Part shown: one piece after another, positions 5,361 through 23,111 of the stretch
Layout of the letters: the number at the start of each line of letters is the position of its first letter
Numbering within the stretch: position 1 is the first letter of the stretch
Translations under genes and position numbers: made by a program
Notes under the pieces: model-generated
What the model was told of the DNA's origin: nothing
The model's database searches: none
What the model saw: only the letters and a program-made list of their open reading frames with translations
NCBI GenBank assembly: GCA_023254445.1
Contig: JALRLN010000003.1
Location: forward strand, 1 to 34,814
DNA length: 34,814 nucleotides
Direction: 5' to 3'
DNA from: Candidatus Poseidoniaceae archaeon
GTDB lineage: Archaea; Thermoplasmatota; Poseidoniia; Poseidoniales; Poseidoniaceae

Positions 5361-5387
5361 CAATTGAAAAATCGAATTTCCAATTGA
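5361..5387. promoter_or_regulatory. 27-nt AT-rich motif, copy 1 (CAATTGAAAAATCGAATTTCCAATTGA). It fills the spacer between the carboxyltransferase stop and the hydratase start.
   Basis: Read directly. It matches 15119-15145 at 24 of 27 positions. Two CAATTG palindromes lie 20 nt apart. Confidence 0.5.
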
Positions 5388-8224: not shown

Positions 8225-8272
8225 GGGCCCTCCATACGATGACGCTATGACCGCCTGCGTTTGGCGCAGTGC

Positions 8273-10828
8273 ATGGATGCACCCTCCATCGTCTTCGGCT
8301 TCCGGCCGACGGTGTTGGTTGGTCTCTTGCTGGCCACGTCCATCGCGGCCGTCTTTTGGCGAATCCTCGTTCCACGCCAACTCCAAGGCCTTCGTGTGGC
8401 CTTTCCAACCGGCACACGAAGGTACGAAGTGCATAGAGTCACCCAAAGCGTCGACGAAGCCCGCCGTTTGTTGGCCACGTCCGGGATGCGGCTCGGCGTG
8501 AGCGCCTACCTCATGGCGCTTGTCGGTGCATTGCTGCTGATTGTCGAGATCCTGCTGATGAACGGGGGCGTGCAGGAGGGCCTGTCCGCCGTCAACCTCG
8601 GACTGGCCATGCTCCTCATCGGTTTCACGTCGCTGACGTCCATCGGTGCCGCCCTTTCTGCCATGTTCCTGCCTTCAATCGGGCTTCAAAGGGCCAGCCT
8701 GCAGCACAACGACCCCAAACGACGACGGAGTTCCGTCCTGCTGTTCTTCGGTTGGATGTCGTTGACCGGCATGGCGTGGTGGGGGATGGCTGGCGTCGAA
8801 TCGTCATGGCGAACGAGCGTGACCCTGGTCGTGGCGCTGACACCACCTGTGTTGGCATACGGTCGAGTGCTTGGCTCATCGTGGCACGCCATGCGGTTCG
8901 AGCACGCTCGGATGGCTGTCGGGAAAACGTCCCCTTTCCGAGGGACGTCCCCCAAACCTCGGCAGCAAGCCTTCGCAATGATCGTCAACATCAACCTCAT
9001 CGCGATGCCGTTGGTCGCCCTGAACACCTTGGTGACCCTCGTCATGATGTTGGCCACACCTGATGTGTTCGTTCACTCGGAGGCCGTGGTTTCACTCCCA
9101 GAGTACACGGCGCAAGCCACGGTGATGGAAGAAGGCGGCTTCCTTGGATTTTGGATGATTGAGGGATTGTCGGGCATCGACGACGCTGCCATCCGGGCTC
9201 CACTTGTTGCCTGCGTTCTGCTGTTCCTTTTGCTCAACGTGGCCATCGTCGGGCTGCTGTTTGTGTACGAAGTCGCCCGCATCATGTTCCTCGACCTGGC
9301 GGAGGTCTCTGGGCGGGGCGGCATCCGCATCACGGACAGCCGGTTGCTGAGGGCGGAGCGGAGTCAGCAAGCAAAGGTCCTGAACTTCTGCTTCACGGGC
9401 TTTGCCGGTCAATCCATGCTCCTTGTGGCCTTGGCTGCCTTGACGTTTTGGGATTCCATCAACCTGCCTTCGGGTGCTGCATGCGGCGCGTGGGAACAGA
9501 CCGTCTGCCATGTGGTTGAGAAAGACGCAATGGAGTCCCTGACATGGATGCTGTCTGCTGGAGGGCAGGTTGCCTTCTTGGCGGTCTGGGCGCGTTCGTT
9601 TCGTGTCGGTCAGCACCTCCCGAGCATCGCGTTTGACGCAGCGGCAGGGGACGACCGGGAGCGTCTTGAATCCATGGAGGACATGATCTACCTCCGTCGA
9701 GGAGGATGGTTTTCGAGCCTGGCAAAGGACGAATGGAGCAGCACCCTCGAACGCTTTGAGGACGAATCGCACCAGTCCGTCAGCGCAGGATTGGAGGGGA
9801 TTGAGCTAAGCCGCCGAACGATGGCGAGGATGCAGGTGTTCGCCGCCCTTGGTCGATGGTCCGAGGCAGAAGAAGAAGCCATCTCGCTGATTGCCCTTTC
9901 CGCCCGTCGATCAGGCCACCATGCGAACGCCTTGCTCGCTGCCGCTTCCCTTGCGCAACGCGATTTCCCAGAAGCCCGGTCACGGTTGGCCACCCTCGCG
10001 GACGGCGACCTCACAACCAATCGACTCCGTTGGTTTTTGGCCGTGTGTCAGCCCCGCGCCACCTCGATTGACCCAGACATGCTTGCGTCCCTCATGGTGG
10101 ACCCCGTGACCCGCATGAACATCGAATTCTTGGAGCGCACAGCGGCCGGCATCGCAGAGGGTCCACGGCCAAAGCGTGACGGTGCCATGGCCCGGCGTTC
10201 CCTCCTTGGTGATGCCGCTCGCCTTCGACTTGAGGGGGCTTCGGACCGTGCGTTGAGCCTGATTGAAGACCACGTCGAGCGCTTCAACCTCTCACCAATG
10301 GAATGGCTCCATGGGCACGCGGTCCGGATCCTCCTCCACCTCGACGAGGGTCGAGTTGCCACTGCAGGCTCGCTTGCGCTGGCTTTGCCGCATGAGGCTT
10401 CCCGCCACCCGCATTACCGCGTCGCCCTCAACGCGTTGGCAGCGGTTGGGCAAGGAAGGCCTCCTGCAAGCGAACCAACTGGCATGACGTGGATCGACGA
10501 AGCCGTTGGCGATTGGATTCAAGCATGGCCGTCCCGTCACGAAGTGGCCGTCGGTCCTGTGTGGACGACCCGAAGCCTTCGTACCCACGCATGGGAGGCC
10601 AATCCATGGGTGCTTCACGACGCGCGGGGTCAAGCATCGACCATGCTGAGGCACATTGGACGCCCTGCGTCAAAGGTGCAATCGGAACTTTCTGGACGGG
10701 CACCGCCCAAAGGCCTGCACATGCACTTGTCTGGGGTGTTGGTGGACGTCGGTGGCTACCCGCTCGACCTTGGTTTGCCGGGACGTGTGGACCACGACGC
10801 CGTGCGGAAGGCTGGGTTGCTGGGCTGA
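8273..10828 (+). CDS. Large membrane protein of unknown family: roughly 9 TM helices in the N-terminal half and an alpha-helical, TPR-like soluble C-terminal half
   Basis: The ORF track frame begins at TTG 8261; the first ATG is 8273. Hydrophobic helices run through about aa 450. After that come helical repeats such as ARMQVFAALGRWSEAEEEAISLIALSARRSGHHANALLAAASLAQRDFPEARSRLATLA. I recognise no catalytic motif. Confidence 0.7.
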   Translation: MDAPSIVFGFRPTVLVGLLLATSIAAVFWRILVPRQLQGLRVAFPTGTRRYEVHRVTQSVDEARRLLATSGMRLGVSAYLMALVGALLLIVEILLMNGGVQEGLSAVNLGLAMLLIGFTSLTSIGAALSAMFLPSIGLQRASLQHNDPKRRRSSVLLFFGWMSLTGMAWWGMAGVESSWRTSVTLVVALTPPVLAYGRVLGSSWHAMRFEHARMAVGKTSPFRGTSPKPRQQAFAMIVNINLIAMPLVALNTLVTLVMMLATPDVFVHSEAVVSLPEYTAQATVMEEGGFLGFWMIEGLSGIDDAAIRAPLVACVLLFLLLNVAIVGLLFVYEVARIMFLDLAEVSGRGGIRITDSRLLRAERSQQAKVLNFCFTGFAGQSMLLVALAALTFWDSINLPSGAACGAWEQTVCHVVEKDAMESLTWMLSAGGQVAFLAVWARSFRVGQHLPSIAFDAAAGDDRERLESMEDMIYLRRGGWFSSLAKDEWSSTLERFEDESHQSVSAGLEGIELSRRTMARMQVFAALGRWSEAEEEAISLIALSARRSGHHANALLAAASLAQRDFPEARSRLATLADGDLTTNRLRWFLAVCQPRATSIDPDMLASLMVDPVTRMNIEFLERTAAGIAEGPRPKRDGAMARRSLLGDAARLRLEGASDRALSLIEDHVERFNLSPMEWLHGHAVRILLHLDEGRVATAGSLALALPHEASRHPHYRVALNALAAVGQGRPPASEPTGMTWIDEAVGDWIQAWPSRHEVAVGPVWTTRSLRTHAWEANPWVLHDARGQASTMLRHIGRPASKVQSELSGRAPPKGLHMHLSGVLVDVGGYPLDLGLPGRVDHDAVRKAGLLG

Positions 10829-12745
10829 TCAGCAACGACGGCGAAGGCGTTCCATCGCCGCATCGGCCTCGCTGAGCGCGCTCAGCGCCTGTTCGGTGGC
10901 CGCGGTCCGGATGGCCTGCTCCGCATCACCGAGATGGCGCTCAACGGCGAGGCGGTCTTCATCGCCCACACCGAGTCCTGCAGCGTGAGCACGTGGCCGC
11001 AAGGAGGCCCATTCTTCTCGAAGGAAGGCGTGCAGTTGGTCGGCTTCGCCAAGATCACGGTCAAGGGCCGCAAGGTCTGCGGTAAGGGCATCGAGACGAC
11101 GTCGTGCGAGGGTCCATTCCTTCGCTTCGGTCGCTTCTTCGACCGCCGTCAGCCGCTCAAGCCATGATGCTTGGTCCTCGAAGCCTTCGAGGCGCTGGAC
11201 GATGCTCGACTTTTGGCGCAAACCACGGCGAACCGCGTCCATCGCTTCACGTTCGACCGTGAGGCTTCGGCGCACGCCTTCGGCCAACCCGGCGGCTTGA
11301 CGCCCGTCGCCTTCAGCCAAGGCTGCGTCTGCTGCATCGAGGCGTTCTCGGTGAGGTTGGAGGTTCAGTCCATCGGCCGCTTCCAGAGCACGCCTGGCCT
11401 CGGAGAGCACACCCTGAGCGTCCTCCAAGGCTCCGGCTTCGGCGTCGAGTTGTGCGGGGATGGCTGAAGCGAGCACGTGGGCCTTTTCTGGGGCTTCCCG
11501 GAGCATGAAGCGTCGTGCCTCGTCAAGGGCTTCCTTGAGGGCAGCAACGTGGCTCCCCGAAGCGTTGCTGATGGCCATGGACGCCGTTTCAATGGCCGCT
11601 TCCGCTTTCGACCACCACGCGATGATGTCCAAGGCGCGGCGCTTGGCTTGACGAAACAAGGCTTCACCCTCGCGAAGCGAGCCGAGTTCGACTTCTCGCC
11701 GCGCCGCGTCAAAGAGGCTGCGTGGTTTTCGAGCGTTGGGTGCAACCGATGCTGCTTCGTCAACGGCGGCGAGGGCATCCGCCTCGATGGCCACCACGTC
11801 GTGCTCAAGGGAGATGGTTCGTTCGATGTCTTCCTCGGCGTCGTCCAACAACCGCATGCCGTGCTCAGGCTCGGTGTACCCTTCAGCCGCTGCTGTCCTG
11901 AGGAGGCTTGCTGCTTGGTCCACCCTGCGTCCGCTTGCTCGCAGTTCCAACAGGCGTCGTTCCAGCCCATCGAGGCGAAGGTGGAAGGCCTTGCGCAATC
12001 CGCGGTGCTCGTCTTCAATGAACCATGACCGAGCCGCCAGACCGCTTGCAAGGAGGGTGACGGAAGCACCAATCAGATCGTTTACGGAACCCGTATTTGT
12101 GCGAAGTCCGAACCACAACGACGCAGTGAGCACCGCTCCAAGACCAGTCAGGAGGGCCCGATACCGTGCTGCTTTGAAGCCCCGCCCGGTACCGTGGTGG
12201 GCCGTACGGAACACCATGCCGGCAAGGCAGACCAGCACAGCCATGGAGGCGATTCGCTCTGTTGCTGGCACGTCGACGTGCTGAAACGCCAGGAAAAGCA
12301 TCGGGGCCCAGGCAACGCTGGCGGCCGTGACCGCGCGCGCGGTGGCGTCTGCCTCATCGCTCGCGTGGTCGTGCACAAGGCTCCCGAAAATCAGGACGAG
12401 TGCAGGGACGCCGAGTGCGGCAAGCGGGGCGCCTTGCCCGTTGAGGACCGATTCGATGCCGGGCCATCCCAACCAAAAGGCGGCAGCAAGGGTGGCCAAC
12501 GTGACGATCATCGCCAACTGCCCGAGGTGAGATTCACGCCGTTGGCGCTCCGCATCAAGCGCGGCCTCAAGGTCAAACCATGCGTCCACGGGCGTGGCTT
12601 CGTGCCATACGGCATGAACCTTGGTCAACAGCGGACCGGAGGAGGGCGCCTCGGAATGTTCATGGGTGGACCCCATCGACAACAAGCGAGGGTCAACCAT
12701 GGTCGGTCTCATCACGATGGAGGACCTGAGCAACGAAGACGTCAT
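10829..12745 (-). CDS. Membrane protein of unknown family: about 6 TM helices at the N-terminus and about 400 aa of Ala/Glu/Arg/Leu-rich helical (coiled-coil-like) repeats at the C-terminus
   Basis: ORF track 638 aa with coding-like GC3. The start is ambiguous: in-frame ATGs lie at 12745, 12712, 12700 and 12676, and the first three would overlap the divergent pyrB start. The stop abuts the convergent gene at TGA|TCA. Confidence 0.7.
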   Translation of the reverse strand: MTSSLLRSSIVMRPTMVDPRLLSMGSTHEHSEAPSSGPLLTKVHAVWHEATPVDAWFDLEAALDAERQRRESHLGQLAMIVTLATLAAAFWLGWPGIESVLNGQGAPLAALGVPALVLIFGSLVHDHASDEADATARAVTAASVAWAPMLFLAFQHVDVPATERIASMAVLVCLAGMVFRTAHHGTGRGFKAARYRALLTGLGAVLTASLWFGLRTNTGSVNDLIGASVTLLASGLAARSWFIEDEHRGLRKAFHLRLDGLERRLLELRASGRRVDQAASLLRTAAAEGYTEPEHGMRLLDDAEEDIERTISLEHDVVAIEADALAAVDEAASVAPNARKPRSLFDAARREVELGSLREGEALFRQAKRRALDIIAWWSKAEAAIETASMAISNASGSHVAALKEALDEARRFMLREAPEKAHVLASAIPAQLDAEAGALEDAQGVLSEARRALEAADGLNLQPHRERLDAADAALAEGDGRQAAGLAEGVRRSLTVEREAMDAVRRGLRQKSSIVQRLEGFEDQASWLERLTAVEEATEAKEWTLARRRLDALTADLAALDRDLGEADQLHAFLREEWASLRPRAHAAGLGVGDEDRLAVERHLGDAEQAIRTAATEQALSALSEADAAMERLRRRC

Positions 12746-13631
12746 TGAGGTGCTCGACGCAGCCGAACGCCTGTTGCCCGTGGCCCGCGGTGAATCCTAC
12801 CTTCCGCTCTTGCAAGGTCGAATCTTGGGCAACTTGTTTTTCGAGCCGAGCACGAGGACAAGGATGTCGTTTGAAACCGCCATGAAGCGACTGGGGGGGG
12901 ACGTCGTCAACCTCGGTGACGTCAGCACGTCTTCGGTGGTGAAAGGCGAAACCCTGTTTGACACCGTTCAGATGGTCGACGGTTATACCGACATCATCGC
13001 TCTGAGGCACCCTCGCCAAGGCGCGGCCCGGTACGCGCAGGACGCCGCTCGTGTTCCCGTGTTGAATGGAGGCGACGGGGCTGGGCACCACCCCACGCAG
13101 ACCATGCTCGATTTGTTCACCATCCGCCAAGCGCACGGTCGGCTCGAGGGCCTCGATGTTGTGCTCGCGGGGGACCTTCGCTACGGCCGAACCGTGCATT
13201 CCCTCTCGCACGCTTTGGTTCGGTTTGGTTGCCGAGTCGTGCTCGCCAGTCCAGAACTGCTCAGGATGCCTTCCGAGATTGTCGAGGACCTTCGCGCGAG
13301 CGGAGGTGACGTGACGGAGACCACGGACCTGCACGCGAGCCTCGCCACCGCGGACGTCGTTTACATGACTCGGATTCAAAAAGAGCGGTTTGCGGACGAG
13401 GACGAGTACACCAAGGTGGCCGGCGCCTACAAGTTGCACGCCAGAGACCTTGCGGACGTGCGTTCAGACATGATCGTGATGCACCCGCTTCCACGCGTGG
13501 ACGAAATCCACCCAAGCGTGGACAGCACCCGACACGCGAAATACTTCGAACAGGCCTTCAACGGCGTGGTGACGAGGATGGCCTTGCTTTGCAGGTTGCT
13601 TGGTGTGGACGTTCCAGGAGGTGAGGCGTGA
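12699..13631 (+). CDS. pyrB: Aspartate carbamoyltransferase catalytic subunit
   Basis: ATCase motifs are present: LFFEPSTRTRMSFETAM, HPTQTMLDLFTI, MHPLPRVDEI. The length from ATG 12699 is 310 aa. The ORF track starts upstream at 12621. Confidence 0.95.
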   Translation: MVGLITMEDLSNEDVIEVLDAAERLLPVARGESYLPLLQGRILGNLFFEPSTRTRMSFETAMKRLGGDVVNLGDVSTSSVVKGETLFDTVQMVDGYTDIIALRHPRQGAARYAQDAARVPVLNGGDGAGHHPTQTMLDLFTIRQAHGRLEGLDVVLAGDLRYGRTVHSLSHALVRFGCRVVLASPELLRMPSEIVEDLRASGGDVTETTDLHASLATADVVYMTRIQKERFADEDEYTKVAGAYKLHARDLADVRSDMIVMHPLPRVDEIHPSVDSTRHAKYFEQAFNGVVTRMALLCRLLGVDVPGGEA

Positions 13632-14107
13632 TGTCGAACGAAAGCAGCATGCGTCGCGTGACAGCGATTCGAAACGGAACGGTGATCGATCACATCCCTG
13701 CAGGAGGGGCCTTGCGCGTGCTGGACCTGCTCGGCCTTCGTGACGGAGCGTCCGTGCCCGTTTCCCTCGTCATGAACGTGCCCTCCAAGAAATTAGGCTC
13801 GAAGGACATCATCAAGGTCGAAGACCGAGAATTGACCGGTGACGAACTCGCCCGTTTGGCCTTGGTGGCTGCATCGGCAAGCGTCGCCATCATTCGGGCG
13901 TACACCGTCGCGGAAAAGCGCGAGATCTCCCTTGGTGACGAGGTGGTGAATGTCGTTCGATGCACGTTCTCCAACTGCATCACGCAGCATCCTCGTGAGC
14001 CCCTGCCCCACCGGCTGCGCGTGGTGGACCGTGCGGAGGTGCACCTGCGATGCCATTATTGTGGCCGTCCTCAGGACCTCGATGCGTTGGTGAAGAACGT
14101 CATCTGA
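13631..14107 (+). CDS. pyrI: Aspartate carbamoyltransferase regulatory subunit
   Basis: The N-terminal domain reads VTAIRNGTVIDHIPAG. The C-terminal Zn domain has C-x4-C (CTFSNC) and C-x2-C (CHYCG). The gene lies directly after pyrB with a TGATG stop/start overlap and GGAGGTGA upstream. Confidence 0.93.
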   Translation: MSNESSMRRVTAIRNGTVIDHIPAGGALRVLDLLGLRDGASVPVSLVMNVPSKKLGSKDIIKVEDRELTGDELARLALVAASASVAIIRAYTVAEKREISLGDEVVNVVRCTFSNCITQHPREPLPHRLRVVDRAEVHLRCHYCGRPQDLDALVKNVI

Positions 14108-15062
14108 GCCCAAGGTGGCCTCGCATCTCGCACGCTTTGCACACGGGTCCTGACGAAGGCCCGTTGCAACGTTGGCACGCGTTGACGTGGTGTTCAGGCT
14201 CGCCAGATTCGGCGAGCGATCGAATCGCATCCAAGGTGCGCACCAAGCCATGTCGGGTGCCAGGGCGCTCCTCTTCGAGTTGAGCGACGGTTTCACGCAT
14301 CCTCCATCGTTGCGCTCCCTCAGCGTTCGGGCAGGTTTCATGGTGCATAGGGAGCCCACGATGCAAAGCGACAAGGTGCACCTCCTGTTCAGGAATCGGG
14401 CGAAGCGGGATGATGCGTGGAGCGAGCCCCTCTTCGACGCGGTGGGTGTGGGGCGCCATGCGCAGGCTGCGCTCCACTTCGCCAGCCACGAGGTTCATCA
14501 TCACCGTCTGAGCGACGTCGTCGAGGTTGTGGCCAAGGGCCACGACATCGGCACCGACGCGCTGAGCAAGTGCGTTGATGCCCTGCCGACGAAACACGCC
14601 ACAGTAGGCGCATGCCGTGGTGGGTGCGCCATCCTTCGTGCTTCGCCCCATGGCGTCCACCACGTCGTCCATGTCAAGGAACTCGAGATCCCTGAAGGCC
14701 ACGTGCTCAAAGCGCAGGCCGAGGTCTGCGCACAGTTGTCTCGCTGCTTCCATGGACGGCGGCCGGTACCCTTCAATGCCTTCATCGACACATCCCCCGA
14801 TCAACGTCACGTCGGGCCGCTGACCGAGCAGGTCGTGCAGCATGGAAAGCAGCACCGCAGAATCCTTACCTCCAGAGATCGCCACCAAAATCGTCGTATG
14901 GCGGCCATCGAGGTGGAGTTGTTGCCGGAGTTCTTTCCCGACCTTCTTTCGGACGGAGCGGTCGAGATGACGTCCGCAGTACCTGCGACCGGAATAGCGC
15001 TGATGGACGATGGCGGGCGCTGCGCAAGCGTCGCAACCCGGTACGTCGAAGGCACGCTCCAC
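14100..15062 (-). CDS. PP-loop ATP pyrophosphatase, TtuA / NcsA (Ncs6/Ctu1)-type tRNA 2-thiolation protein with N- and C-terminal zinc fingers
   Basis: The PP-loop is VAISGGKDS. The Cys triad candidates are GGCVDEG, CAYCG and HETCPN. The terminal CxxC pairs are CDAC...C and CQRC...CKAC. The start is GTG. The 3' end overlaps pyrI by 8 nt. Confidence 0.85.
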   Translation of the reverse strand: MERAFDVPGCDACAAPAIVHQRYSGRRYCGRHLDRSVRKKVGKELRQQLHLDGRHTTILVAISGGKDSAVLLSMLHDLLGQRPDVTLIGGCVDEGIEGYRPPSMEAARQLCADLGLRFEHVAFRDLEFLDMDDVVDAMGRSTKDGAPTTACAYCGVFRRQGINALAQRVGADVVALGHNLDDVAQTVMMNLVAGEVERSLRMAPHTHRVEEGLAPRIIPLRPIPEQEVHLVALHRGLPMHHETCPNAEGAQRWRMRETVAQLEEERPGTRHGLVRTLDAIRSLAESGEPEHHVNACQRCNGPSSGPVCKACEMRGHLGLR

Positions 15063-15109: not shown

Positions 15110-15150
15110 AAAATTTTGCAATTGAAAAATTGAATTCTCAATTGAAATAC
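15110..15150. promoter_or_regulatory. AT-rich block in the divergent intergenic region. It contains the AAAATTTT palindrome and the 27-nt motif copy 2 (15119-15145, CAATTGAAAAATTGAATTCTCAATTGA). It is a candidate site for divergent promoters or an operator.
   Basis: Read directly. Together with 5361-5387 it is the only strongly AT-rich block I saw in the window. It lies about 50 nt from the thiolase start. Confidence 0.5.
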
Positions 15151-15323
15151 GAACCGCAGGAACTCCTGTCCCTATCTCCGTCGCGAACTCCCGCTCAGTC
15201 CTTCGGTTTCCAACGAGATCTGCTGAAGCATCCGTTCGGCTTCTGAATTGAACTCTCAAAACGTGCTCTTCCGCCGTTCCCACGGGAAAGGTCTTGAAGC
15301 CCGCCGTTGCGGGTGATGGCTCG

Positions 15324-15641
15324 ATGTCGACACGAGGCGCCGTGCTCAAGGCCTTCAAGCGCTGCAAAGGTGTTGACGAGGCCCTCCTCGTCGAACACGA
15401 TTCACCGCTCCCATCGCCGGACGACCAGATCGCACGTGCTGCGTTGGCCGTGGCGCAGGCGGCTGGCGTGGGGGCACTGGAGCATGTGCATCTCGCCGGT
15501 GATGCGGCGACGTCGATTTTCTTCGCGCCTCCTGGGCCGAGGGTGATGCTTCGCGGGGCCCCGGGCGGCCTCGGGGCATGGAGGTACACGCATGAACGCC
15601 ACCGTCCCATCCTCCAACACCTCGCGGAGGTGGATGCATGA
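15324..15641 (+). CDS. Small Roadblock/LC7 (MglB-like) domain protein (tentative)
   Basis: The 105-aa product has the Roadblock-like pattern: GVDEALLVEHDS...DQIARAALAVAQAAGVGALEHVHLAGDAATSIFFAP.GPRVMLRGAPGGLG. GC3 is coding-like. GGTGA lies upstream of ATG 15324 (the ORF track starts at TTG 15294). The stop overlaps the next gene as ATGA. Confidence 0.6.
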   Translation: MSTRGAVLKAFKRCKGVDEALLVEHDSPLPSPDDQIARAALAVAQAAGVGALEHVHLAGDAATSIFFAPPGPRVMLRGAPGGLGAWRYTHERHRPILQHLAEVDA

Positions 15642-18600
15642 GCGTGAGCTTGCCTCCCGGGGAGGCCGTCGACGTCGAACTTGACCTTGGAAGCCTCATG
15701 CCGTTTGAACACGGCTTTGTCACAACGTGGGTCGGCCGAAGGAAGACACCCTCCGGACACCGTCTGGTTCGTGGTCACAGGGTGATTGGTTGGCTCGCTG
15801 CCTCGGAAGCCGGGTTGATTGGGGGTGCAGAGGGCCAGGCGGCTTTGCTGAGCCTTGAGGCGGACGCCGAACACGTTCGGCATGTTGCGGAATCGTGGAC
15901 CCTCGGAGAACTTGCAGACGTGCTGATGCTGATGCCGAGCGTGGTGCTCCATGCAGTGGACCTCGAGGGACTGCCGTCCGGGCCGGGCCCAGCACGTCGC
16001 TTGCTGTCCCGCTCGGCTTCGGTCATCATGGCAGCGTTGAACGAGGATCCTGAAGTCCTTGGAGCCGTTTTGGTTGACCAAGGCCTGCTCGTCGACCATA
16101 CCGGGCACGTGCCTGGTGATACGGACGAACTCGCTGGCTTGGTGGCCGACACCATGCGCACCCGTCAAACGATTGCAGGAGGTCTTGGTCTTCCCGAGGA
16201 AGGGCACTGGACGCTCGCCACACCGCAGGGCTCCGTGCTCTTGGCTTCGGCTGCTGACCTTGCTCTTGGCGTGTGGACGGCATCAGGTTCGGACCACCGG
16301 CGCTTGCTTCAACGGATGGCCAACGCCGTCTCCGGCAGCGCGGGTGACGACGGGCAGGCAGGGCACCTGCCGGAAGGGTTCGTTCTTCGCGAAGGAAAGA
16401 GCGGACCTGATGCTGTCCTCTCGATGCTCCGCGTCGCTCGAGAAGAGCAAGTGTACGGCCACCTCAGCGTCGGGGCCGGTGAACGAACCACGGCGGTGGT
16501 GCTGCTCTCTGGCCGCCCAGTGGGCTTGGTTTCCTCAAGCGCCGCGACGTTGGAAGAAGCGGTGTACGACCTGACAGACCGTCGACGTGTGGCCAGATTG
16601 CACCAACTCCCACTCGACGCGGCGATTGGCGAAGGCACCGCCAACGTTCCAGGTTTCACGCTCGCCGCCTTCGGTGCCTCCATCGCCAGCAGCCGCTCAC
16701 GCACGGAAGACCGCAAAGACACCCTCATGGCTCGCTACGAGGACATCTTAGGGTTCGATGTCGGCCTTGAATCGCTTGGCCCGAAGGTTGCCCACCTCGG
16801 TGAAGCAGCCGAGGGCGTCGACCACCTGAGCACCGGCGACAGCCCGAGGCTGGTGATCGACGCGGGATACCGCCAACGGCTTGAAGACGCCGAGCACCGA
16901 ATGGACGGCCTTCAACAGGAAGCAGCAGCACTTCAGGCCCGACTCGAACAGGCCGAAAACGCACGGATGCGCGCAGAAGTGGCACTCCGCGAAGCCAAGG
17001 ACGCCACAGGGGAAGGCCAGGACCGACTTCGTGCGACAGGCGCAGACCTCGACCAAGCAAAGCTGGCCGTCGCGGAAGCCGAACGTCGCGCGGAAGCGGC
17101 CGAAGCACGCGCTGAACGTTTGGTCCGGCGCACGTCCGAACTCGAGCATCAACTCGAACGCCGAGCGGCAGAACTTGCCCGTACCGTGGCGGATTCAGGG
17201 AGCAGGGAGGCCCTTGCTTCGACCTTGGCAGGCATGGCTGAGGAAGAGGCTCGCGTCAAGGCGGAGCTGCAAACAAGCGCAGAGCGGTTGACAGAAGTCA
17301 AGCGACGGCTGGTGGAGGACGAGCGGCACCTTCGCCTCCTTGAAGAGCAGACGTCGGCTGCCCACGAGCGCCAAGCAAACGCGGTACGGGACCTTGCAGT
17401 AACCGAGGACGGCGTACGAGCAGGAAAGGCCGAACTTGCAGCGGTGGAGGCAGAAGTTCGCGCCGCCCGACGTCGGGCGGACGACGAACGCGAACGTCGA
17501 AGGGAGGACGAAGTTCGTCGTTCCCACCTTGAATCTGAAATCCGAGGGCTGTTGGAGGAACGCCGTACTGTGCTTCGCGAACTTGGAGACCTTGGTGTGC
17601 AGCGCGGGCAATCCGAGGCTCAGGTCGCTCACCTCGCCGATCAGGCCGACGCCTTGGCCACGGCTCATGAAGCGGCACTTGCCGACATCGAAGAAGCACG
17701 ACGTCTCCGTGCGAGGCTCACGGACGAGCCTCTTGCACAAGCCCTGCTGGAAGACGGAGCGTCCATGGCGGCGCTTGGTCCGGTGCTGGAACGCTTGGAA
17801 CATACACGAGCGCAAGGCTACTCGGTCGTCTTGTTGGACAAGGCCGTCGAACGCGCGTTGCAGGTCATTGGCACCGTGGTCGACCGTGCAGCCGAGACGC
17901 CGCGACACCTGCTTTCCAACGACGTGATGCTGCTGCTTGAACAGCAGGTCCCTGAAACGGCGGGGATCGTTCGAGGCCTGACTCGATGGTCCGTTCAGCA
18001 ACGACTGGAACACTCGCTGAAGCAGGCCGTCACGGACGTTGTGCTCGACTTGGAGCACCTGCTCGAAGACCAAGACCGTGCCATCACCATGCTCCGTCGC
18101 ACCAGAAACGTGCTCGAACAATTGGCCCGCTTGGGTGCGCCACAAGACGAGATCGATGCGCTCATGTCACGTTGCAGGTATCCAGAGGCGCTGCCGGACA
18201 TCGCTGCCGCAACGCAGCGGCTCATTCGCGTGGCCTTGGACGACATCCACCTCGAAGCCGATCAGCGCGACGCGGGTGCTTCGGTCGCCCTGGCCTTGAC
18301 CGCCGAAGCCCTCGAAGAATTGCTGAGCCAACTTGAGGCTGCGGGCCTTGTTGGCGGTCGGCCTGCAGGTCATCTTTGGGCCTTCATGGCAAGCGGGCTG
18401 CTCCCCTCTGAGGCCGGACACGCCCCATCAGCAGCACCCGAGGATGATGTTCTGCCCCTTGAGGAGGCTCCACCGGAGGAACCCGCACCTGAAGAGGCGG
18501 ATGCCACGGAGGCTCCCCATCCACCGGTCCCGGCGGCGTCGCGCTCCTTGCCACCGCTCGACGACGCCGAAGAACGGATGCGCCTTGAGGCTGAACTTGC

Positions 18601-18721
18601 TGCCTTGGACGCAGCACGGGCCCCCCACGGGCAAGGCCGTGAGCACGTCGAGGAGGGTTTGGATGCTGGCATGGCGGCCTTGGCAGCGCTCGAGGCACGC
18701 TTGGGTGATCTGGAACTTTGA
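15638..18721 (+). CDS. 1027-aa multi-domain coiled-coil protein. The N-terminal 330 aa contain a Roadblock/LC7-like module flanked by two DUF4388/PATAN-like segments (tentative). About 300 aa of coiled coil follow, then a helical domain, a Pro/Glu-rich linker and a terminal helix.
   Basis: The Roadblock-like part is aa 124-226 (nt 16007-16315): VIMAALNEDPEVLGAVLVDQGLLVDHTGHVPGDTDELAGLVADTMRTRQTIAGGLGLPEEGHWTLATPQGSVLLASAADLALGVWTAS. The heptad-like A/E/R/L-rich stretch is aa 408-700 (nt 16859-17737). The PEEAPPEEPAPEE linker is aa 928-975. GGAGGTGGA lies 4-5 nt before the ATG. Confidence 0.75.
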   Translation: MSVSLPPGEAVDVELDLGSLMPFEHGFVTTWVGRRKTPSGHRLVRGHRVIGWLAASEAGLIGGAEGQAALLSLEADAEHVRHVAESWTLGELADVLMLMPSVVLHAVDLEGLPSGPGPARRLLSRSASVIMAALNEDPEVLGAVLVDQGLLVDHTGHVPGDTDELAGLVADTMRTRQTIAGGLGLPEEGHWTLATPQGSVLLASAADLALGVWTASGSDHRRLLQRMANAVSGSAGDDGQAGHLPEGFVLREGKSGPDAVLSMLRVAREEQVYGHLSVGAGERTTAVVLLSGRPVGLVSSSAATLEEAVYDLTDRRRVARLHQLPLDAAIGEGTANVPGFTLAAFGASIASSRSRTEDRKDTLMARYEDILGFDVGLESLGPKVAHLGEAAEGVDHLSTGDSPRLVIDAGYRQRLEDAEHRMDGLQQEAAALQARLEQAENARMRAEVALREAKDATGEGQDRLRATGADLDQAKLAVAEAERRAEAAEARAERLVRRTSELEHQLERRAAELARTVADSGSREALASTLAGMAEEEARVKAELQTSAERLTEVKRRLVEDERHLRLLEEQTSAAHERQANAVRDLAVTEDGVRAGKAELAAVEAEVRAARRRADDERERRREDEVRRSHLESEIRGLLEERRTVLRELGDLGVQRGQSEAQVAHLADQADALATAHEAALADIEEARRLRARLTDEPLAQALLEDGASMAALGPVLERLEHTRAQGYSVVLLDKAVERALQVIGTVVDRAAETPRHLLSNDVMLLLEQQVPETAGIVRGLTRWSVQQRLEHSLKQAVTDVVLDLEHLLEDQDRAITMLRRTRNVLEQLARLGAPQDEIDALMSRCRYPEALPDIAAATQRLIRVALDDIHLEADQRDAGASVALALTAEALEELLSQLEAAGLVGGRPAGHLWAFMASGLLPSEAGHAPSAAPEDDVLPLEEAPPEEPAPEEADATEAPHPPVPAASRSLPPLDDAEERMRLEAELAALDAARAPHGQGREHVEEGLDAGMAALAALEARLGDLEL

Positions 18722-18730
18722 GGTGGCTGT

Positions 18731-18985
18731 GTGAGCGAGCGTTGGCCTTTGCCACCTCAGCGCGACCACTCCATCGTCGACCGGCCGTACCCGCTCTTTC
18801 TCGAGCGCGTGGTGCTTTTCTTGCTGCTCTGCGGGATCGTCGCGCTTGTGGTGGTGGGAGCGCGTGCGCTCCCTTGGTCGCCGTGGTTGACCGTCCCGCT
18901 GATGCTGCCGTTGGCCTTCGTTCTCTGGGTGTCGTTGGGGGAGCGGCTTGGGGGCCTGGTCCAGTTGGCGCACCTCGACCGATGA
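18731..18985 (+). CDS. Small (84 aa) two-TM membrane protein, third gene of the Roadblock/coiled-coil operon
   Basis: GTG 18731 lies 9 nt after the upstream stop, with GAGGTGG at 18720-18726. There are two clear hydrophobic helices: VVLFLLLCGIVALVVVG and LTVPLMLPLAFVLWVSL. Confidence 0.6.
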   Translation: MSERWPLPPQRDHSIVDRPYPLFLERVVLFLLLCGIVALVVVGARALPWSPWLTVPLMLPLAFVLWVSLGERLGGLVQLAHLDR

Positions 18986-20209
18986 TCACAGCCAAACGTT
19001 GTCCTTCGGGGTCTCGTCCTCCGAACCACCCACCAGGTTTCCAACGACGAGGGCACGGAGTTGGGCCAAACGTCCCCAGGGCACGAGGAGGCGTAGGGTC
19101 GCTGCGACGCCGAGGAACAACAAGGCGGAAATGACGACCCCATAGGTCAACCTGAGTTCAATGGAATCCGACACTTGGCTTGCCCACTGGCTCCCAGTGG
19201 TCGTGGTGACGATCTCCAGAAGCACCCCATGGAAGCCAAGGGCCACCATGGTGGCCAGCCCCGTGAGGGTCAGGTACAGCGCAGTGTGCCGGAGGTGGCT
19301 GTTCAGGACGTTGTCCATTTGGCGTACGTACTCTTCGTCCCGCTTGCAGGATTCTGGGAGCCGGTAGGCGTACTCGAGGTGACGAATCACGCCGAAGGCG
19401 GACTCTTGGAAGACCATCATCAGGACAGCGATGAGGATGAGCGAGAGTTGCTGCGAGGTGACGAGTTTGAAGCCAAGCAGGCCGACCTCTGGTGTTCCAA
19501 CTTGCGTGTCGAGCGTGGACAACCCGTCGCCGTACGCACCGAGTTGGTTCAGGACCACAGGGAAGGTGAGGATGGCGTGAAGTCCGAGGAAAAGAAGCGT
19601 GAAACCGATGGACCACACCACGGCCTGACGGGACAGCCCCCAAATTCCTCGCGTTCCCATGATGACGGGGAGGAGGTACACAAAGAGGACCAGCAAGGAC
19701 AGAATGAGCATCAACGGCCATTGGAGCAAGGCCAGTTCGCTTTGGTCGGGGAGGTCAAGACGGAACTCGATGATCATGCCTCCAACCCACGCCAGCATCA
19801 TGCGTCCGACCAGCAGCACGATGAGGGACACAATCACGCCAATCCGAATTCGTTGCTGGAGTTTCGGAGGCTGGAACGCGAGGAGCGCCATGCTTCCACC
19901 AAGGGATAAACCGAGCACCAGAGGGACGGTGAATCGCGCAAGTCCTTGCCGCCCAACACCCGTCAGCCAGTCCCCGAGGGGAAGATCGGAGCCCATGATG
20001 ACTTCCAGCGTGTCGAAGAGCATCGTGTGGTCGATGGAGCCGACCACGTAGGTGCCGATCACCTCGAGGTACATCCACACCAAGGCCACCGTAGCGATCA
20101 CCTGCAGGGCGAGGATCTGCCATTGCTTTCGGAGGTTCCTCAAGTGCAGCGTGTGGCGATGGCCGCCGCTGTGGGTGATGTCCGATTGAACGTCAACCTC
20201 GCCTGCCAT
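18986..20209 (-). CDS. Polytopic membrane protein (about 8-9 TM) of unknown family, last gene of the DUF4350-DUF58 operon
   Basis: ORF track 407 aa. ATG 20209 lies 1 nt after the DUF58 stop, with GAGGGGG upstream. Hydrophobic helices occur throughout. Confidence 0.7.
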   Translation of the reverse strand: MAGEVDVQSDITHSGGHRHTLHLRNLRKQWQILALQVIATVALVWMYLEVIGTYVVGSIDHTMLFDTLEVIMGSDLPLGDWLTGVGRQGLARFTVPLVLGLSLGGSMALLAFQPPKLQQRIRIGVIVSLIVLLVGRMMLAWVGGMIIEFRLDLPDQSELALLQWPLMLILSLLVLFVYLLPVIMGTRGIWGLSRQAVVWSIGFTLLFLGLHAILTFPVVLNQLGAYGDGLSTLDTQVGTPEVGLLGFKLVTSQQLSLILIAVLMMVFQESAFGVIRHLEYAYRLPESCKRDEEYVRQMDNVLNSHLRHTALYLTLTGLATMVALGFHGVLLEIVTTTTGSQWASQVSDSIELRLTYGVVISALLFLGVAATLRLLVPWGRLAQLRALVVGNLVGGSEDETPKDNVWL

Positions 20210-20210
20210 G

Positions 20211-21464
20211 TCAGTACCCCCTCACTTGCATCAGGGCCTGAGCGAGGTCCATGTCCGGCATCCAGTCGATGACCTGCGCTCCAGAACTGGCGAGGCTTGT
20301 CAACCTGTTTTGGCGCTCCATCCTCAGCACCTCGTACGAGAGCCGAGGGATGCGGCTCACCAACCGCTCAAAGTCGATGGAGGACGGTGTCAGGACGGTG
20401 ACGTCGTGACCACGTCCAACGAGGTCACGAACCGCTGCAGGCACCGTCCCATCGCCTTCGACGCTGGAGATGATGAACACCGGCGAGCCGCGGCTGAAGC
20501 GGCCGGACACCGAATTCGTGACGGCCTGGAGGGGCATTTCGCCGGTGTGGCTCACGCCAGCAAGCGTGCTGAGGATCTTGAAGTACTGCTTGTCACCGGT
20601 GTCCGGTGGCAGGTAGGACAAGCCGTCACCATACACAGCCAGGGCGACGGAATCCCTCCGTTGTAGGAAGTACGAGGCAAGGGAAGCAGCGGAAACGCAC
20701 CCCATCTCGAGCGGGTTCTTGAGGACGGTTCCGATCCGGGAAATCTCACGAGCATCGAGCAGGATGAAGACGTCAGTGACTGCATCCCGACACTTTTCGT
20801 TCACCATCAACTCGCCCGTTCGAGCATACGCCTTCCAGTTGATGCTCTTGAACGGGTCACCGGGGACGTATTCGCGAAGGGAGTAGAACTCAGACCCTTG
20901 GCCGGGGGTTCGGAGGGTTGTGGCACCCGTGTACATCTTGGGCGTTCGGCTGCGAAGGAAGGCTTCCTCAACGTCCTTGACCTGAGGGAAGACGATGATG
21001 TCGGAGTGGTGATCGATGCGCATTTCTTCGACGCCGAGGTTGAACGTGTTGCGGTGACGAAGGGAGACAGGTCCGATGGTGTAGTGCCCCCGAAGCGGGC
21101 ATCGAAGCACGTACCTGATGCGCGCAGACTCACCTGGGGCGAGGTCCAATCGCATCTGGTTCAAGCCGCTTCGGAGTTTCATCTCGTGAGGTACGTTGTC
21201 GAACACCTCGAGGGTTTGCGTCCGACGAAGGCTGCGGTTGATGACGAGAAGTTCGACGTACAGGTCGTCGCCTTTGTACAGGTTGTCGGCCGACAGGGTC
21301 CGCTGAACTTCGATGTCACCATGCCCCGTCATCCATGCGTTCACGGTGATGAACGCGATGAACGCGAATCCAAGGATCATCATTTGATGGTTGGAAATCA
21401 TCATGCCAATGAGCACCAAGGCGAGGCCTGCAACGATGGTGAAGGCCGCCTTCCTTGTCCACAT
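20211..21464 (-). CDS. DUF58 domain protein (vWA-like, usually MoxR-associated) with an N-terminal TM hairpin
   Basis: The signature is GQGSEFYSLREYVPGDPFKSINWKAYARTGELMVNE, followed by FILLDAR. Two TM helices sit at the N-terminus. GGAGGGG lies 6 nt upstream of the ATG. Confidence 0.9.
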   Translation of the reverse strand: MWTRKAAFTIVAGLALVLIGMMISNHQMMILGFAFIAFITVNAWMTGHGDIEVQRTLSADNLYKGDDLYVELLVINRSLRRTQTLEVFDNVPHEMKLRSGLNQMRLDLAPGESARIRYVLRCPLRGHYTIGPVSLRHRNTFNLGVEEMRIDHHSDIIVFPQVKDVEEAFLRSRTPKMYTGATTLRTPGQGSEFYSLREYVPGDPFKSINWKAYARTGELMVNEKCRDAVTDVFILLDAREISRIGTVLKNPLEMGCVSAASLASYFLQRRDSVALAVYGDGLSYLPPDTGDKQYFKILSTLAGVSHTGEMPLQAVTNSVSGRFSRGSPVFIISSVEGDGTVPAAVRDLVGRGHDVTVLTPSSIDFERLVSRIPRLSYEVLRMERQNRLTSLASSGAQVIDWMPDMDLAQALMQVRGY

Positions 21465-21476
21465 CCAGACCCCTCC

Positions 21477-23111
21477 TCAGGCGCGCCCCCACGCCTTGAT
21501 GCGCTTGACAAGCGCGACCGTTTCTTCGAGGCTGTACCTCCCGGGCTTCACGGCAAAGGAAGCCAAGGCTTCGTCACCGATGAGGGCGACCAATTCGTTG
21601 ACTTCCAGCGCATCAAATTCTTCTCGTGTCAGTCCGTTTTGGTTTCGAACCTTCGAGAGCAAGACCTGGCGAATTTTCTCGCTTTTCGTGTAGTAATCGT
21701 AGCGTTCGGCGTCGCCAAACCCGTAGTAGATGATGCTGAACACGTGCCGCCACGACTGAGGGTCCCGCTTGCGAAGGAGGACCATCTCAAACGCGAGGAA
21801 GAGACCAACGAACAGGACCGCCATCGCGAGGCCTTCTCCTGTGAAGTACACGAGCAGGAAGTAGATCGTGTTGTATCCTTCCGTGACCAGAACGTTCTGG
21901 GTGTGGCGGCTTTCGTCGAAGATCACCTGCGCGTTCGAAGAGGGGGCAGCCCCTTCCTGGTTCGGGTCATCAAGGGCTTCAGCGATGATGTCCAACATGA
22001 GGCGACGGTTGTCGTTTTCAGGGATCGAGCGCTCAACGTCAGACTCGGCCTTGGTTTCGTCGGGATAGGCTCCTTCGTTGAAGGACTCGTAATCGTAGAG
22101 GGCGTTGATGAGCATGCTGCCGTCGGCGAAGAAGAGGATGCGGCCACCGTCGTCGGGGTCGCAACTTCGGTCCACGCAGGCTTCGACGCTGAGGTTGAAT
22201 TGTCCCCAAAGGTCCGGCGTTTCGGCCGTCACTTCGTTGCCGACCCAAATTTCCCCATCCCCGTTCACGTCCACTGTTGCCTCGTTGCTCGTTGTGGCGA
22301 GCACGTGCACCTCACGCAAGGCGCCGCGCACGTCCGGCACAATCTCGATGCCCGTGGCCACGTTGAGCAGCACGCGGTAACTTGCGTTGAACTCCACAAC
22401 GCCGAGTTCGCCACTTGTTGGCGTCCAGTGTTGAATGCACAAGCCCGCTTCGTCCCGTGCCATGGTTTCGCCGTCGAGGAGTGCACACGGATGCGTCACG
22501 GTTTCCGCCTCGTCGCCCCAGCGGGGATGGGTGGCGACCGTCGTGAGGTCCAATTCCGTTCCATTCATGCCACAGGGGCTTGATTGCACGCACATCCAGA
22601 TGTAGTTGTAATCGAGTTCAGTTGCGTACAAGGTGTCGTACACCTGCCAACCGCCGTAGTTCAGTCCAAACGCGTCGGCGATGCCACCTGCATACCCGAA
22701 ATCCTCCATCACGATGACGGTGCCACCGTCTTCGACGAATTTCACAATGGCTTCGATTTCAGAGGGACTGTAGCCGTCCTCCGAAGCAAACCGAACCAAG
22801 CCATCGGGGTCAAACTGCGGCAGGGAGAGCGTGTCGCGCTCCATGCCTGCAATCACAAAGGTCGTGTTGCGCGGATCGTCGATGTCGGCAAGCAGGAGCG
22901 GGCTGCTGACAAGGGAGCGTGTTTCCACCCCCATCGCGTCAAGGTCCTCGCGGAAGGCAGAGAGGTCGTTCCAGTCGTCGTCGTAGGCAGACAACTGCTC
23001 AATGTTGGCGAGGTTGACGAAGTTCAGCAAGACCATCATCGCCACAACGCCCAGCACCGCCCAAAACGCGGTCTGGAGGGCGAGCCTCCGCATCTTCGTC
23101 GTCACCTGCAT
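21477..23111 (-). CDS. DUF4350-like membrane-anchored extracytoplasmic protein (GldG/GATase1-like fold) with a Cys-rich insertion and a C-terminal TM plus cytoplasmic tail
   Basis: An N-terminal TM is followed by AYDDDWNDLSAFREDLDAMGVE...FVIAGMERD...SEIEAIVKFVEDGGTVIVMEDFG and, late in the protein, VIFDESRH. This pattern matches my memory of DUF4350. AAGGTGAGG lies before the ATG. Confidence 0.7.
   Translation of the reverse strand: MQVTTKMRRLALQTAFWAVLGVVAMMVLLNFVNLANIEQLSAYDDDWNDLSAFREDLDAMGVETRSLVSSPLLLADIDDPRNTTFVIAGMERDTLSLPQFDPDGLVRFASEDGYSPSEIEAIVKFVEDGGTVIVMEDFGYAGGIADAFGLNYGGWQVYDTLYATELDYNYIWMCVQSSPCGMNGTELDLTTVATHPRWGDEAETVTHPCALLDGETMARDEAGLCIQHWTPTSGELGVVEFNASYRVLLNVATGIEIVPDVRGALREVHVLATTSNEATVDVNGDGEIWVGNEVTAETPDLWGQFNLSVEACVDRSCDPDDGGRILFFADGSMLINALYDYESFNEGAYPDETKAESDVERSIPENDNRRLMLDIIAEALDDPNQEGAAPSSNAQVIFDESRHTQNVLVTEGYNTIYFLLVYFTGEGLAMAVLFVGLFLAFEMVLLRKRDPQSWRHVFSIIYYGFGDAERYDYYTKSEKIRQVLLSKVRNQNGLTREEFDALEVNELVALIGDEALASFAVKPGRYSLEETVALVKRIKAWGRA

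Follow-up and report, generated by a model that had tools for sequence, protein, structure and literature searches.

A conserved three-gene operon of Poseidoniales encoding two predicted Roadblock/LC7 modules, a long coiled coil and a predicted two-helix membrane protein

The Three Genes and Their Junctions

We analyzed a stretch of 34,814 nucleotides from a Candidatus Poseidoniaceae archaeon (contig JALRLN010000003.1, assembly GCA_023254445.1; the whole stretch is hereafter called the window), and focused our attention on three consecutive genes of its forward (+) strand, the products of which are referred to as O1, O2 and O3. Gene 1 (15324-15641, +) is an open reading frame (ORF), found at the position given by an earlier reading of this DNA, from its letters alone (the original prediction), and encodes the 105 residues of O1. 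Gene 2 (15638-18721, +) encodes O2, a protein of 1027 aa, and gene 3 (18731-18985, +), which opens with a GTG at 18731, encodes the 84 aa of O3. The junctions between them are very short. The stop codon of gene 1 and the start codon of gene 2 share the letters ATGA at 15638-15641 (junction GGAGGTGGATGCATGA), with GGAGGTGG placed at 15626-15633, ahead of the O2 start, while the stop of gene 2 is separated from the GTG of gene 3 by a gap of 9 nt (junction TGAGGTGGCTGTGTG), with GAGGTGG at 18720-18726. As to the beginning of gene 1, a TTG at 15294 represents an alternative start that would give a protein of 115 aa; the ATG at 15324 is the same start as in the called proteins P0078 and P0089, and GGTGA is found just ahead of it. 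The G+C content of the trio is comparable to that of the surrounding DNA. Long antisense ORFs are ordinary at the 63% G+C found here, and the ORFs of the + strand can be taken as real genes, rather than as artefacts of GC-rich DNA, because they are conserved.

Conservation and Distribution

For O2, 77 full-length homologs of 1020-1073 aa were collected, with identities of 40-99%, every one of them labelled 'hypothetical' and devoid of Pfam domains; those carrying organism names come from Poseidoniales or 'Euryarchaeota' metagenome-assembled genomes (MAGs). When one genome per GTDB species was searched, 304 stretches were found to encode an O2 relative, with the original Marine Group II (MG-II) genome, CM001443.1, among the genomes concerned; the best 80 of these 304 are from Poseidoniales/Poseidoniaceae MAGs, bar some entries with generic archaeal labels and a single record with an odd label. 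In addition, an exhaustive HMMER search with a profile of O2 residues 1-400 against 1.84 billion representative proteins returned 73 proteins at E ≤ 0.001, corresponding to about 12 full-length clusters of 1020-1089 aa and, for the rest, to fragments. Such a small number of matches in an exhaustive search indicates that the O2 family is narrow. Overall, the operon has so far been found only in Poseidoniales, and it is widespread there. A separate observation concerns L015 (CAXRAI010000014.1), a record entitled 'Salinimicrobium sp.', a bacterium, which holds a 69%-identical copy of O2; it is probably an archaeal contig that was binned or labelled wrongly.

The order of the three genes is closely maintained among the relatives. 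An O1-family gene lies directly upstream of O2 in 86 of 87 Poseidoniales loci, the exception being a contig that ends short, and an O3-type ORF of 80-85 aa lies directly downstream of O2 in about 80 loci. The spacings within the trio cluster at -4 to +12 nt and almost never exceed 12 nt; the internal starts are often preceded by GAGGTG-like motifs. These observations support O1-O2-O3 as a single, tightly spaced and conserved unit that is co-translated. The original prediction had put forward just such a co-translated chain of three genes, and its coordinates, the ATGA overlap, the GAGGTGG and the GTG start were all recovered as claimed, with the spacing kept across loci; the gene order, on which its case also depended, has been retained rather than lost in the relatives. 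Moreover, the trio stays together in loci where the flanks have changed, through insertion of an LVIVD gene in L001 and L087, or of a methyltransferase gene in L089. It is this retention, together with the tight coupling, that supports a functional unit.

On a larger scale, the loci share a colinear order consisting of pyrB, pyrI, a TtuA-like gene (opposite strand), the trio, and the genes for a 407-aa membrane protein, DUF58, DUF4350, a PRC-barrel protein and CDC48, the last five all on the strand opposite to the trio. The most divergent lineage, represented by L089 and L090, departs from the usual arrangement in having a gene for a 448-aa FG-GAP repeat protein between O2 and O3, on the same strand. 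In L089, this gene is found at 13221-14567, overlaps the end of O2 by 50 nt, and encodes a protein with a signal peptide and a C-terminal membrane anchor; the same holds for L090. An O3-like ORF that was missed by the gene caller follows the FG-GAP gene of L089 at 14578-14859, and is matched by the hidden Markov model (HMM) of the O3 family with E 5e-8. The FG-GAP insertion in L089 and L090 suggests a possible connection with the cell surface.

Gene 1, a Predicted Divergent Roadblock/LC7 Protein

It had been proposed that O1 shows a Roadblock/LC7 (MglB-like) pattern. The copy encoded in the window has zero Pfam matches at E ≤ 1, PF03259 (Robl_LC7) included, and zero NCBIfam matches, and a word-index search with it returned two proteins, both near-identical to the query. 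An O1 family of 96 members was therefore assembled by aligning the genes that occupy the O1 position in the loci and searching with this alignment. Within this family, 10 of 27 representative members match PF03259 at E ≤ 1, with a best E of 2e-7, and several carry a precomputed PF03259 match. One ortholog, sitting in the same trio, has been given the Joint Genome Institute (JGI) label Roadblock/LC7/MglB, 'predicted regulator of Ras-like GTPase activity'. In agreement, the best PDB-sequence matches of the O1-family profile are Roadblock proteins, namely 7f8m (E 7e-5), CvnB5 (3leq), 9jue and MglC (7ct3, E 0.65), and an hhalign comparison between a 172-sequence O1 profile and the Pfam-validated Roadblock protein P0243 gave a probability of 88.8% (P 2.5e-6) over 107 columns. 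Based on these profile comparisons, we regard gene 1 as a divergent Roadblock/LC7 protein.

Alignments further revealed that O1 proteins of the window's clade, as well as those of a related clade of 103-134 aa, have approximately 10 residues fewer at the beta1-beta2 hairpin (aa ~30-45). The hairpin is retained in the other O1 clades, where it reads DDRGRLLSSVG..., and the Pfam matches fall among these hairpin-keeping members, so that the shortened hairpin is probably the reason why the O1 of the window escapes Pfam. The Roadblock/LC7 claim thus stands for the family, through the Pfam matches in 10 of 27 members, the PDB profile matches and the hhalign result, but not through Pfam for the window copy itself, in which the fold is partly lost. 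O1 also evolves much faster than O2, showing 33% identity where O2 shows 67%.

The N-Terminal Head of Gene 2

An AlphaFold2 model of O2 residues 1-400, computed with 39 sequences, reached a predicted local distance difference test score (pLDDT) of 84.8 and a predicted template modelling score (pTM) of 0.75; in it, three compact modules precede a long helix. Module N1 (aa 9-98; 15662-15931, +) is modelled as a beta-rich alpha/beta unit with the order b-b-b-b-b-a-b-a and a pLDDT of ~87-95; module N2 (aa 127-231; 16016-16330, +) displays the Roadblock topology a-b-b-a-b-b-b-a; and module N3 (aa 248-323; 16379-16606, +) is an alpha/beta unit of order b-a-b-b-b-a-b with a pLDDT of ~87-94.

A Roadblock pattern embedded in O2 had been claimed for aa 124-226, and structure comparison, hhalign and the recovery of a Roadblock protein by profile search concur in placing such a domain at aa 127-231. 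When the model of the head was compared with the PDB using Foldseek, the best 50 matches listed were all Roadblock structures, with E values of ~1e-5, a probability of 1.00 and target TM-scores of 0.6-0.84. The best of them is LAMTOR2/p14 (5y39, 5x6v, 2zl1), and MglB (6hjm, 3t1r, 1j3w) and Asgard Roadblocks (9jue, 7yh1) are also found. Against PDB sequences, the best matches of the O2 N-terminal profile are weak (E 0.015-1) and mostly Roadblock proteins, with 3leq, 7f8m, 7f8f and 7yh1 aligned at approximately 127-233, of which 3leq and 7f8m cover 131-233, and LAMTOR5 at 138-173. In addition, the exhaustive search of 1.84 billion proteins with the O2 head recovered P0243 at profile positions 125-220 (E 2.5e-4); this protein matches PF03259 at 9.6e-14, and its hhalign comparison with N2 gave a probability of 97% (P 8.4e-11). 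Pfam yields no Roadblock match at E ≤ 10 for O2 and 20 orthologs, being blind to N2 in all of them, and the module can hence be described as a cryptic Roadblock domain. Altogether, model and profiles identify O2 aa 127-231 as a predicted Roadblock/LC7 domain.

O1 and N2 can be aligned colinearly over 94-96 columns, weakly (P 0.0075-0.0077), and 3leq and 7f8m are the top PDB matches of both profiles; a paralogous origin of the two is possible. A search for repeats within the head, in which N1 was compared with N3, and N1 and N3 with N2, showed no relationship among them. N1 contains a strongly conserved basic motif, GRRKTPxGHRLVRGxR (aa 33-48; window 15734-15781), which could represent a ligand- or phosphate-binding site. 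N3 opens with a P-loop look-alike, LPEGFVLREGKSGPD, and the motif LPEGF(V/T)LR(E/D)G(K/R)(S/G)GPD is found at aa 245-259 (window 16370-16414), with G247, F248, G253, G256 and D258 invariant, and with Lys to Arg and Ser to Gly replacements among the orthologs.

The Coiled Coil, Helical Domain and Tail of Gene 2

The head is followed by a predicted coiled coil of ~340 residues (aa 357-700; 16706-17737, +). Its residues 357-388 and 637-696 form long helices in two AlphaFold2 models. The segment is rich in Ala, Arg, Glu and Leu, and in several stretches its heptad (3.5-residue) periodicity is 3-7 times the background. Conserved Gly/Pro positions occur near aa 518 and 650-657; between aa 410 and 650 conserved Pro/Gly are almost absent, with 518 as the sole exception. 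Thereafter, O2 continues with an all-helical domain (aa 701-928; 17738-18421, +), for which an all-alpha AlphaFold2 model with a pLDDT of ~80-93 was obtained. Conservation within O2 peaks here, at a mean column identity of 0.83, against values of 0.60-0.72 for the remaining folded parts and of 0.46 for the linker that comes next. Neither Foldseek against the PDB (best E 0.49) nor Pfam produced a match for it, and this C-terminal helical domain is a new domain family.

The linker (aa 929-975; 18422-18562, +) is predicted to be disordered (pLDDT < 50), is composed of 28% P, 21% A and 17% E, and, besides its low column identity of 0.46, varies in length among orthologs. O2 ends in an acidic terminal helix or helix pair (aa 976-1027; 18563-18718, +), modelled as a helix over aa 976-1023, in which the motifs DDxEERxxLEAELAxLDA and ALxxLEARLxxL are conserved. 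The net charge of this tail is -8, which argues against a typical membrane-binding amphipathic helix and makes it instead a candidate for binding a partner. The earlier description of this portion of O2 had listed a coiled coil, a helical domain, a Pro/Glu linker and a terminal amphipathic helix; all four elements were found, and it is the word 'amphipathic', in the sense of membrane binding, that the charge of -8 does not sustain.

Gene 3, a Predicted Two-Helix Membrane Protein

O3 matches neither Pfam nor NCBIfam models, and hydropathy analysis places two hydrophobic helices in it, at aa ~26-46 and ~52-72. Among 70 distinct O3 sequences, the motifs YP(L/M)xxER, before the first helix, and ExxGRxxQ, after the second, are conserved, and the loop between the helices is variable; the HMM of the family recovers O3 in the most divergent lineage too. 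As the motifs flank both helices, the two are expected to face the same side of the membrane, which we infer to be the cytoplasm. The hydropathy profile and the 80-85 aa homologs at the same position in ~80 loci bear out the two-helix membrane miniprotein that had been proposed, and gene 3 is accordingly described here as a conserved, predicted two-helix membrane protein.

Walker A Motifs and Neighbouring GTPases

A scan of O1, O2 and O3 for Walker A motifs found none, in agreement with the original prediction, which had pointed to GFVLREGKS as the nearest look-alike; the scan gave no other. This string, located at the opening of N3, cannot serve as a Walker A motif, since orthologs carry Arg in place of its Lys and Gly in place of its Ser. 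In the window, conserved Walker A motifs are present in CDC48 only. A hidden nucleoside triphosphatase (NTPase) was also considered for a neighbouring 855-aa protein, on account of the string ARMAVGKT, and rejected, as the string is not conserved and falls inside a membrane segment. Moreover, a GTPase encoded next to the trio would have turned it into a known MglA/MglB-type module. No ORF with the small-GTPase motifs G1, G3 and G4 was detected within 6-10 kb of O2 in 87 loci, the range to which this search was limited, and no GTPase Pfam families occur among the called neighbours of the trio. We also considered an anti-phage defence system, a candidate that was discarded after PADLOC gave no matches at E ≤ 0.01 for the trio and three neighbours.

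Flanking Genes and Upstream Elements

The divergent intergenic region upstream of O1 contains a pair of CAATTG boxes, CAATTGAAAAATTGAATTCTCAATTG (15119-15144), a candidate promoter or operator. A second pair, CAATTGAAAAATCGAATTTCCAATTG, is found in an intergenic position at 5361-5386; it is 26 nt long and nearly identical to CAATTGAAAAATTGAATTCTCAATTG. The arrangement CAATTG-N12-18-CAATTG thus occurs twice in the window, as compared to 0.01 occurrences expected by chance, and similar paired boxes are present upstream of O1 orthologs in L001, L003, L008, L009, L012, L020, L033 and L083. These boxes may represent a shared Poseidoniales promoter or operator motif.

On the upstream side lie two conserved genes, at 8261-10828 (+) and 10829-12745 (-), coding for proteins of 855 aa and 638 aa, respectively. 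Both are without Pfam or PADLOC match and are found at the corresponding position in L003 and L005, and membrane segments are present in the 855-aa protein. Downstream, a convergent cluster (18986-23111, -) comprises the genes for a 407-aa multi-pass membrane protein without Pfam match, DUF58 and DUF4350, a PRC-barrel gene and CDC48 being next. The stop of the 407-aa membrane protein gene abuts that of O3, with 0 nt between them, and a MoxR-type ATPase gene is absent beside the DUF58/DUF4350 cluster.

Proposed Function and Alternative Explanations

Roadblock domains work as dimers or platforms, as exemplified by MglB2, MglB-MglC, LAMTOR2/3 and LAMTOR4/5, and the C-terminal domains of RagA/C. 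Considering the composition of the operon, we tentatively suggest that its products form a scaffold that is associated with the membrane, is free of NTPases and has Roadblock domains at its core, a reading that we regard as possible, if not quite probable. Since Roadblock domains work as dimers, O1 would most likely pair with N2 in a 1:1 heterodimer, a ratio that translational coupling would favour. The coiled coil would dimerise O2 or extend it into a stalk, and the helical domain, the acidic tail or both would dock on the cytoplasmic motifs of O3, so that the assembly is held at the membrane. In this way, the Roadblock pair would constitute a membrane-proximal platform for the recruitment of a partner, which may be a GTPase encoded elsewhere, or would otherwise work as a platform without a GTPase.

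Several points weigh against this proposal. The entire neighbourhood is colinear in these genomes, and synteny alone is therefore weak evidence, adding little beyond the tight coupling. The coupling between O2 and O3 is itself not absolute, as indicated by the FG-GAP gene inserted between genes 2 and 3 in one divergent lineage. In addition, part of the fold is missing from the O1 of the window, and this copy might be a weakened partner. The pairings of O1 with N2, and of the O2 tail with O3, are extrapolated from the behaviour of Roadblock domains and from gene order, and the structures of the O2 head and tail are predictions, in which the coiled coil may be either a parallel dimer or a hairpin.

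A stronger version of the scaffold proposal would hold that the trio forms a GTPase-independent, membrane-tethered coiled-coil assembly on a Roadblock heterodimer, serving as a lineage-specific cytoskeletal, tethering or polarity device; its head would join a Roadblock to two further modules of unassigned fold, and its C-terminal domain would be new. We consider this version rather unlikely; if true, with no GTPase being needed, it would widen the known roles of prokaryotic Roadblock dimers.

MglA-like GTPases are the partners of many prokaryotic Roadblock proteins, and the main alternative is that the trio could be the regulatory half of an MglA/MglB or Rag/Ragulator module, in which the Roadblock pair would act as a GTPase-activating protein (GAP), a guanine nucleotide exchange factor (GEF) or a dock for a distant Ras-like GTPase, with the coiled coil and the membrane protein serving only to position the complex. 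This explanation would fit the finding that the structures closest to N2, those of MglB and LAMTOR2, belong to GTPase partners, as well as the 'predicted regulator of Ras-like GTPase activity' label given by JGI to one O1 ortholog. However, prokaryotic mglB usually adjoins mglA, and no GTPase-like ORF was detected within 6-10 kb in the 87 loci, nor any among the called neighbours; moreover, Roadblock proteins without a GTPase partner exist, such as dynein LC7 and MglC. On balance, a GTPase module of this kind appears doubtful.

It is also conceivable, albeit improbable, that the trio belongs to a surface- or envelope-linked system working with the 407-aa membrane protein, DUF58, DUF4350 or the exported FG-GAP protein, for instance in transmembrane organising or signalling. 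O3 does end 0 nt from the stop of the convergent gene for the 407-aa membrane protein, the latter adjoins the trio together with DUF58 and DUF4350 in every locus examined, and a secreted, membrane-anchored FG-GAP protein stands between O2 and O3 in L089 and L090. Nevertheless, these neighbours are on the opposite strand in a region that is colinear, so that the adjacency may be inherited rather than functional, and the FG-GAP insertion is confined to one lineage.

The original prediction had further assigned the segments flanking the Roadblock module of O2 (aa 15-85 and 243-325) to DUF4388/PATAN-type modules, and on that basis O2 would be a PATAN/DUF4388 signalling adaptor, placed with bacterial motility and development regulators. 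What speaks for it is N3, with its topology b-a-b-b-b-a-b: compared by hhalign with four Deinococcus DUF4388 domains (from plasmids), N3 (aa 263-324) aligned colinearly over 51-62 columns, the best alignment to real DUF4388 domains, at a non-significant P of 0.03-0.07 and a probability of 1-2%. For N1, the same comparison produced short stretches (P 0.07-0.32, with controls at P 0.13-0.46), and Pfam, PDB-sequence and DUF4388 comparisons were all without match. A DUF4388 consensus sequence, validated with Pfam, gave no significant hhalign match to the O2 modules. Furthermore, Pfam found no DUF4388 (PF14332) at E ≤ 10 in O2, in 20 orthologs or in the isolated N1 and N3 segments, whereas a control sequence close to the consensus, included in the same run, reached 2.6e-36. 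The exhaustive search with the O2 head likewise retrieved no DUF4388 proteins, and no outside family for the flanking segments, among the 1.84 billion proteins, and a search of the PDB by sequence found no DUF4388 structure. The DUF4388/PATAN identity is therefore not supported for these two modules, which are well folded in the model, and a signalling adaptor of this type has a low probability.

Finally, we give practically no credence to O2 being SMC/Rad50-like, as a whole protein or as a fragment, with a role in chromosome organisation or in repair, since the NCBIfam SMC/Rad50 matches at aa 412-715 (E 9e-6 to 7e-3) are weak, reach 14-24 bits against cut-offs of 567-1087 and are confined to the coiled coil, there is no ABC (ATP-binding cassette) ATPase head and no Walker A motif, the termini are instead a Roadblock-containing head and a helical domain without SMC match, and the protein is full length in all relatives.

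Significance and Comparison with Known Systems

Poseidoniales (MG-II) are among the most abundant planktonic archaea of the surface ocean, and they are uncultured, with a cell biology that is essentially unknown. The operon offers a concrete candidate for a structural or regulatory machine that is associated with the membrane of their cells. To our knowledge, and judging from the 'hypothetical protein' labels and the lack of Pfam matches, a membrane-tethered scaffold of this kind has not been described. Moreover, as both Roadblocks escape Pfam in most members, routine annotation undercounts archaeal Roadblock platforms, which bears on the spread of Roadblock/longin-type platforms outside Asgard archaea and eukaryotes.

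Among known systems, MglB and MglC of Myxococcus and Thermus, from the MglA polarity module, have in common with O1 and N2 the Roadblock/LC7 fold and are detectable homologs of them. The trio differs in having no adjacent MglA-like GTPase (6-10 kb), in carrying a Roadblock inside a 1027-aa coiled-coil protein, and in its dedicated two-helix membrane protein. Streptomyces conservons (cvnA-D) offer a second point of comparison, as CvnB5 (3leq) is a top PDB-sequence match for both the O1 family and N2, and both operons include a membrane component. Conservons also encode the sensor-kinase-like CvnA, a DUF742 protein and the GTPase CvnD, whereas counterparts of CvnA, DUF742 and CvnD are absent from the trio locus. 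The Asgard Roadblocks (7yh1, 9jue) are likewise archaeal and match N2 in structure, but they are small stand-alone proteins, while the family described here is specific to Poseidoniales, has diverged beyond the reach of Pfam and is fused to a giant coiled-coil protein. With SMC/Rad50 proteins, O2 shares a coiled coil of comparable length; it is without ABC ATPase head, Walker A, hinge or zinc-hook match, and its termini are unrelated.

In its overall logic, the trio resembles Ragulator/LAMTOR, where a membrane anchor (LAMTOR1) is likewise combined with a paired Roadblock platform (the LAMTOR2/3 and 4/5 heterodimers). In contrast to LAMTOR1, a lipidated wrap-around protein, the anchor of the trio would be a two-helix integral membrane protein; the trio is further set apart by its long coiled coil and its new helical domain, and has no Rag-like GTPase nearby. 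The likeness is best understood as an architectural analogy and not as orthology, the components being unrelated. Overall, the Roadblock superfamily is well known, and what appears to be new is the combination, that is, two Roadblocks hidden from Pfam, one of them within a giant coiled-coil protein that also carries a new domain; the lack of an adjacent GTPase, a distribution restricted to Poseidoniales and the dedicated two-helix membrane partner encoded in the same operon appear to be new as well.

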